From: Octopus vulgaris
Lineage: Eukaryota
NCBI GenBank assembly: GCA_951406725.2
Contig: OX597827.1
Span: 76,818,001 to 76,882,000, forward strand
Length of the DNA stretch: 64,000 nucleotides
Direction of reading: 5' to 3'
The notes below the pieces were generated by a model. It had not been told where the DNA came from and searched no databases. It saw nothing but the letters and a program-made list of their open reading frames with translations. Below, one piece after another: positions 34,752-35,039 of the stretch (positions are counted from its first letter, which is position 1; each line of letters opens with the position of its first letter). Both the position numbers and the translations under genes were made by a program.

Positions 34752-35039
34752 AACAATTGCAGCGTGGAAGGTGTTTATAAGCCATTTAAGAAACAAAGAA
34801 AACCATTAGATTCACTTCAACATTTAAATTTAAATTGTCAAAATATTTTCGTCCCTTTGAAACCCTGACCTGTTCACTGACAAAATTCTGTGCTGCATCA
34901 CGGAATTTTGTCAGTGAACAGGTTGCGGTTTCAAAGCGGCAAAAATATTTTGACAATTTAAATTTAAATGTTGAAGTGAATCTAATGGTTTTCTTTGTTT
35001 CTTAAATGGCTTATAAACACCTTCCATGCTGCAATTGTT
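34752..35039. repeat. ~288-bp near-perfect palindrome (foldback or inverted pLTR-like element)
   Basis: AACAATTGCAGCGTGGAAGG...CCTTCCATGCTGCAATTGTT, arms ~140 bp. A half copy including the centre lies at 41058-41222. Confidence 0.9.
34835..34883 (-). ncRNA. Hammerhead-like motif with G3-C8 swapped core
   Basis: TTGTCA GTGAACA G GTC..GAC GAAA ATAT TT TGACAA. Same motif at 34908-34956 (+) and 41141-41189 (-). Confidence 0.6.

Follow-up and report, generated by a model that had tools for sequence, protein, structure and literature searches.

Minimal hammerhead ribozymes of Penelope-like elements (PLEs; Cervera & de la Pena, 2014, PMC4209133) cleave weakly and do so as dimers (PMC4209133, PMC6765202). 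Within the hammerhead core C3 and G8 pair (PMC3088659), and residue 8 is proposed to act as general acid through its 2'-OH (PMC6155905). Replacing G8 with C is very damaging and is partly rescued by C3G (PMC8495972), and the same double mutation in the PLE hammerhead of PAc, a Poseidon element of Anolis, partly restored protein-assisted cleavage (Frangieh et al., 2024, PMC11167929). The active hammerhead structure has the C3-G8 tertiary pair as a key feature, and reversal of this pair to G3-C8 has so far been used as an engineered rescue control, the only form in which it appears in the relevant passages of PMC11167929, PMC8495972 and PMC3884650. Natural U3-A8 pairs have been published (PMC3088659, PMC4209133). 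The text section on natural core variants in Perreault et al. (2011, PMC3088659) names U3-A8, A6C, insertions and U15.1-A16.1 but not G3-C8, and a term search of PMC11014351 and PMC7229834 returned no relevant passage on the 3-8 pair. Our search of article text found no natural G3-C8 hammerhead, and an earlier mention, for example in the supplementary alignments of PMC4209133, is possible.

Here we describe an octopus repeat that shares with the PLE minimal hammerheads the type I topology, an unpaired nucleotide between 9 and 10.1, G10.1-C11.1, a palindromic stem III, copies dispersed genome-wide and opposite-strand pairs (PMC4209133). The cores differ, being C3-G8 with a natural U3-A8 family in Schistosoma there and G3-C8 in the octopus repeat, whose carrier, short and non-coding, keeps its 5' end fixed; no partner ORF was found for it. 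PAc shares with it two reverse-transcription starts that yield an optional tail, as well as AT-rich targets, and was given the identical swap, C3G/G8C (PMC11167929). In PAc, however, the swap was engineered and the element is autonomous, whereas here the swap occurs naturally and two subfamilies are fixed for it. At about 58 nt, the tail also exceeds the 30-40 nt usual for PLEs. With the variants of Perreault et al. (PMC3088659) the repeat shares naturally occurring covariation of the 3-8 tertiary pair. The non-LTR retrozymes are likewise small, non-coding and hammerhead-bearing, and have been proposed to be non-autonomous PLE derivatives (PMC7229834; 10.64898/2026.07.22.740005), but they form head-to-tail tandems with a hammerhead per unit, in contrast to the solo copies and head-to-head palindromes of the G3-C8 family. 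The G3-C8 motif is best classified as a new core variant carried by a non-autonomous retroposon of PLE type.

The window, the whole 64,000-nucleotide stretch of DNA analysed, contains G3-C8 motifs of 49 nt at all three sites named by the earlier note, 34835-34883(-), 34908-34956(+) and 41141-41189(-). Their layout is as that note described it, with the core GUGAACA, one extra G, a 5-bp stem II layout, GAAA, the palindrome AAUAUU, a UUU site and stem I. Stem I, given there as 6 bp, is present and reaches 7 bp in most family copies. The three motifs, which the note had counted as three copies, derive from only two insertion events in the window, since those at 34835(-) and 34908(+) lie in opposite arms of the same palindromic insertion. 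This insertion spans 34696-35040 and has head-to-head arms: a long arm at 34696..34901(-), recognised by an nhmmer profile match (34901-34696) and by its sequence, with a ~58-nt 3' tail and a (TA)n end, and a short arm at 34890..35040(+), recognised by profile match and fold, which is an inverted, tail-less copy also ending in (TA)n. The core of the long-arm motif lies at 34877-34871; the short-arm motif has its core at 34914-34920, its stem II at 34922-34926/34936-34940 and a predicted cleavage position after 34950. The second insertion, identified by sequence and nhmmer profile, is a tail-less retroposon copy at 41059..41207(-) with its motif core at 41183-41177, accompanied by an inverted-arm stub at 41196..41222(+) that has the fixed 5' end and stops three bases into the core.

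Decay of single copies, which had also been pointed out, is evident in each of the three motifs: the + copy carries G12A at 34941, stem II of the 34835(-) copy forms 3 of its 5 pairs, leaving two mismatches, and the 41141(-) copy is mismatched once in stem II, at pair 10.2-11.2, with a U-G pair also present in its stem I. A transcript of 34696-35040 is predicted to adopt a single long hairpin (-224.5 kcal/mol) that buries both motifs, and with the window's palindrome copies modelled as fold-backs, activity from them is unlikely. The same window does hold canonical-core minimal motifs with the extra nucleotide, as had been claimed. The intact one, at 13393..13438(-), belongs to another repeat family and is a C3-G8 minimal type I hammerhead with the extra nucleotide, a palindromic stem III and a fold z of -2.31. 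Cores at 37924(-) and 59133(-) are decayed or shorter canonical minimal hammerhead remnants of other repeat families. Elsewhere in the window (53828-55531, -), a 567-aa stop-free frame runs over CTG/GTT repeats, poly-Gln-like on the minus strand, and is a possible coding exon.

The carrier of the motif is a ~205-nt non-coding repeat, with the motif 17 nt from its fixed 5' end. In the 2.8-Gb genome (227 contigs), a 47-nt stretch of the repeat has 443 exact occurrences and a 34-place pattern finds at least 1,235 copies, with reversed controls of 0 in both cases. Three copies in 1 Mb of evenly spaced, unselected genome, all of them solo, extrapolate to ~8,000 genome-wide (Poisson range about 1,700-25,000). 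The replacement of CUGANGA by GUGAACA extends well beyond the window: among 100 listed of the 1,235 copies, 95 have G3 and C8 and none has C3-G8 (hand count). Contigs from four public runs, carrying four organism codes, showed no variant at ≥4% at positions 3 and 8, and the sole frequent stem I variant in these runs (8-15%) retains a U-G pair. Fixation within a young family by itself only shows a founder state.

An old subfamily, to which the lead came from a search mostly matching a flanking repeat, was sampled through 30 BLAST-picked copies of 41 matches. G3 and C8 are present in 16 of the 30, and several others are 5'-truncated or decayed. When the commonest letters of the old and young subfamilies were compared, all 33 of 33 constrained positions were equal, against 35 of 140 downstream positions (25%) that differ (Fisher p 4e-4, or 0.011 with the two changed letters at pair 6 of stem I included). 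Outside the constrained positions, the old subfamily has C for A at N7, a loop II of 7 rather than 9 nt and a stem III palindrome shortened from AAUAUU to AAUU, that is, from 6 nt to 4 nt and palindromic in both; at stem I pair 6 it has G-C for U-A. The 3' letter of this pair is C in 26/30 old copies, and the 5' letter is G in 13/30 and A in 15; reading the 15 A letters as CpG decay, we consider the change at pair 6 likely to be compensatory. Thus the stem covariation check proposed earlier finds the stems retained between subfamilies, with one likely compensatory pair in stem I. Seven of about 29 old G-type copies listed are A3-C8, and C8-to-U changes number only 3; the A3-C8 copies could reflect decay or a separate mismatched sub-lineage.

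A strict descriptor (stem II ≥5 bp, stem I ≥6 bp, G10.1-C11.1, a palindromic stem III, positions 3 and 8 free) gave 0 matches in 40 Mb of shuffled genome versus 2 in 1 Mb of real genome, both of the G3-C8 family. A looser descriptor, again with 3 and 8 free, detected 19 motifs in 1 Mb, with 0 in the reversed control and 4 in 5 Mb of shuffles; 11 of these were C-G (7 from one array), 5 U-A, 2 G-C and 1 C-A. Adding G10.1-C11.1 left 18 real matches, Watson-Crick at 3-8 in 18/18, and 1 match in 40 Mb shuffled. Chance is excluded as the origin of the motif layout. The G3-C8 family has the hammerhead features U4, G5, A6, A9, G12, A13, A14, A15.1, U16.1 and H17, together with a possible Watson-Crick 3-8 pair, stems I and II, G10.1-C11.1 and the extra nucleotide after A9, and it fails a literal CUGANGA core test. 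As the earlier note had anticipated for CUGANGA descriptors, the motif is detected neither by such a descriptor nor by Rfam. At the gathering score Rfam reported no hammerhead in the window, missing the canonical motif at 13393-13438 too, and with an intact copy as query none of its 13 matches at E≤10 was a hammerhead; the best 150 of 371 Rfam matches were microsatellite noise. A search aimed at further, unrelated G3-C8 families, requiring a G/C pair at 10.2-11.2, yielded 375 matches against 145 in the control. Inspection by eye of the first 100 listed recognised no new family: most belonged, in mutated form, to another abundant repeat, and a few were mutated members of the G3-C8 family. Matches to a small share of the query in two insect metatranscriptomes were set aside as probably just its (TA)n end.

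Related repeats with the canonical pair also occur in this genome. A 21-place pattern that left positions 3, 7 and 8 as well as the extra base open matched 418 times (control 0), and the first 100 listed (hand count) comprised 63 C3-G8, 18 G3-C8, 7 A3-C8, 3 each of C3-C8, C3-A8 and G3-U8, and one each of G3-A8, G3-G8 and U3-A8. The C3-G8 copies fall into two sister families, S1 and S2, in which palindromes and short and tailed ends are found as well. Stem II of the sisters has A-U for G-C at pair 4, a compensatory difference that is illustrative only, coming from 16 hand-picked, related copies. Homology of the tail is independent of the selecting pattern and appears weak per sequence, yet consistent: matching by tail only, 3/26 sister arms were found at E≤0.006 per Mb, two of them one duplication, and 27/65 G3-C8 tails matched sister tails at E<1 per Mb, 2 of them at E<0.01, against 0/65 when reversed. 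A 23-row tree of motif plus tail set the G3-C8 copies apart from the C3-G8 families at 100/100. S1 (L343-L362) is abundant and has a canonical core and stem II; its stem I closes poorly at the cleavage site, and its stem III palindrome needs G-U pairs in most copies. In S2 (L363-L372) the fixed 5' end precedes the motif by about 205 nt, and 5/13 arms carry A9C, apparently marking a sub-lineage whose core was already damaged when it amplified. At L343, a segmental duplication with no RT ORF explains a pair of sister motifs separated by 3.1 kb.

Given the conservation between subfamilies and the sisters with canonical C3-G8, comparative sequence evidence indicates that the swap is natural, reciprocal and set in a true hammerhead lineage of PLE type. 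On structural and evolutionary grounds, the view of the motif as a natural covariant gains support from fixation, from retention of the stems between subfamilies and from the C3-G8 sisters. With C3-G8 taken as ancestral, being the general hammerhead state, a single swap suffices.

The G3-C8 repeat has two alternative 3' end points about 58 nt apart, which makes the tail optional. Among 32 head-to-head insertions, 18 join a tailed and a short arm, 8 a tailed and a truncated arm, 3 two short arms and 3 a short and a truncated arm, with 0 two-tailed; 30 differing junction sequences were counted among them, later mutation included. Of 30 loci chosen for a non-palindromic 5' base, 6 proved palindromic, 6 were 3'-truncated and 18 were assessable, and in these we found 9-12 bp duplications at 4, 6-7 bp matches at 2, insertion in (TA)n at 6 and none of these at 6. 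Among the features of PLEs are microsatellite targets, an inverted 5' copy and a tail that may be absent (PMC8557442), the tail reflecting two internal reverse-transcription starts (PMC11167929). The repeat displays the optional tail, the inverted 5' copy and the microsatellite or AT-rich targets alike, and was likely copied by the enzyme of a Penelope-like element. Since no partner was found in 50 PLE loci, PLE-driven mobilisation is something we infer: three subfamily profiles run against these loci, in which one family is dominant, returned incidental insertions only. When sequence preceding the 5' end was searched for a longer parent, the single match turned out to be a palindrome junction. 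The young element opens with 6-7 bases that show complementarity to the end of its tail and could close the RNA ends (L063, L064, L065; L037:1502-1707); this 5' extension is missing from the old subfamily.

The PLEs of this genome include a family with a 781-aa RT plus GIY-YIG. A related 781-aa ORF of this type has many open copies with identical scores, which suggests recent PLE activity. In 6/30 loci (L077, L079, L080, L083, L088, L094), a U3-A8 minimal hammerhead with a 6-nt palindrome lies downstream of GIY-YIG, and the PLE subfamily carrying it may be Neptune-like, judging by its cysteine linker. C-G, U-A and G-C states of the 3-8 pair are all present in one genome. A retrozyme-like tandem array with C3-G8 hammerheads at 359-nt spacing occupies L151:2308-4514 (L194, L199, L202 and L232 are also listed), and a similar family with U3-A8 cores has two copies 362 nt apart in L199. 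A link between the G3-C8 element and a GIY-YIG ORF at L098 was rejected: the copy there is truncated and nested in another repeat bearing terminal inverted repeats (TIRs), other copies of which are without the hammerhead element. This host repeat, separate from the hammerhead element, is MITE-like, ~390 bp long with ~15-bp TIRs, and occurs in TA tracts (L098:935-1375; L100-L129).

We consider it probable, if by no means assured, that the repeat carries near its 5' end a Penelope-type minimal type I hammerhead, swapped from C3-G8 to G3-C8 and acting as a slow cutter that depends on a dimer or a protein. The swap would have arisen once, in the ancestor of the old and young subfamilies, and would have been retained because the 3-8 tertiary pair, which places the 2'-OH of residue 8, is preserved. 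The RNA would be reverse-transcribed from either of two 3' start sites into nicked AT-rich DNA, producing short or tailed ends, and fold-back near the 5' end would often generate a head-to-head palindrome. Two RNAs may pair through the AAUAUU palindrome, building stem III and allowing a cut after UUU. A U at position 17 makes a weak cleavage site. Insertions retain sequence on both sides of the cut site, so the template was probably uncut RNA, and cleavage would be a side reaction or serve in processing. We predict cleavage to be slow and to depend on a dimer or a protein, on the basis of the weak dimer cleavage of PLE minimal hammerheads and the partial rescue in the engineered double mutant; among tested Xenopus retrozyme dimers, 8/9 showed no cleavage (10.64898/2026.07.22.740005). 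In full-length folds of two copies stem II forms and stem I is absent, the lowest-energy predicted dimer leaves the stem III palindromes unpaired, and the fold z falls below -2 in only 1/4 family motifs. Against the proposed slow cutter we also count the constraint on the sisters, which looks loose in stem I of S1 and, through A9C, in S2.

The same fold could instead mark a true hammerhead descendant that no longer cuts, kept as founder sequence or for another job, with G3-C8 only preserving shape; we regard this as possible though doubtful, and would say the same of the jobs it might serve, a structure bound by a PLE protein or an RNA stability element. In its favour, insertions span the cleavage site and start at a fixed point 17 nt before stem I, the sisters were amplified with imperfect stem I or A9C, the motif is buried in head-to-head copies, and in PAc hammerhead cleavage was dispensable, catalytic mutations having no effect on insertion in vitro and no reads ending at the site (PMC11167929). 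Loss of cutting sits less well with the constancy of U4, G5, A6, A9, G12-A14, A15.1 and U16.1 between subfamilies while the free N7 changed, with a palindrome maintained despite a 2-nt change in length, or with a reciprocal double transversion, which is the prediction of keeping the tertiary pair.

Were the element a fold-back DNA transposon (MITE), its arms similar to a hammerhead only by coincidence, this would account for the many insertions that are long palindromes in (TA)n, for the missing Rfam hammerhead match and for the lack of an autonomous PLE partner in the 50 PLE loci. This proposal is largely refuted and very improbable, since the arms are asymmetric, with two tails in 0/32 palindromes and 30 differing junctions in 32 (later mutation included), solo copies exist, being 3/3 in the unselected 1 Mb, 9-12 bp duplications flank 4/18 assessable copies, the chance rate is below 1 per 40 Mb and homologous sisters have a canonical core. 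We give still less credence to a hammerhead fully active as a monomer that releases or circularises the element in the manner of the non-LTR retrozymes. Its length of ~205 nt is within the retrozyme size range (PMC7229834), and the element is present in contigs of one run (X9), whose RNA origin is a guess. Yet no clean head-to-tail array was found among the sampled loci, a small share of the family, in which five same-strand close pairs are parted by flank, TA tracts or an inverted arm; the 5' end lies away from the cleavage site, no monomeric stem III is present and no contact between loop 1 and loop 2 was recognised.

The further claim, that the natural G3-C8 hammerhead is catalytically active, descends from a C3-G8 sister lineage of the same genome and has been under selection through at least two waves of retroposon amplification, we put forward tentatively, as plausible but somewhat short of probable. 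If true, it would add a third natural state of the 3-8 pair, could represent a ribozyme deliberately slowed so as to leave enough uncut RNA for reverse transcription, and would be a sign of a ribozyme class across Penelope-like elements missed by CUGANGA-based surveys. Hammerhead censuses built on CUGANGA would be undercounts, since such descriptors miss the G3-C8 family. With G-C and C-G forms in related repeat families of thousands of copies, the octopus genome offers a natural series on how the swap was crossed, which also bears on whether PLE hammerheads are selected for cleavage, a point described as unclear in PMC8557442.
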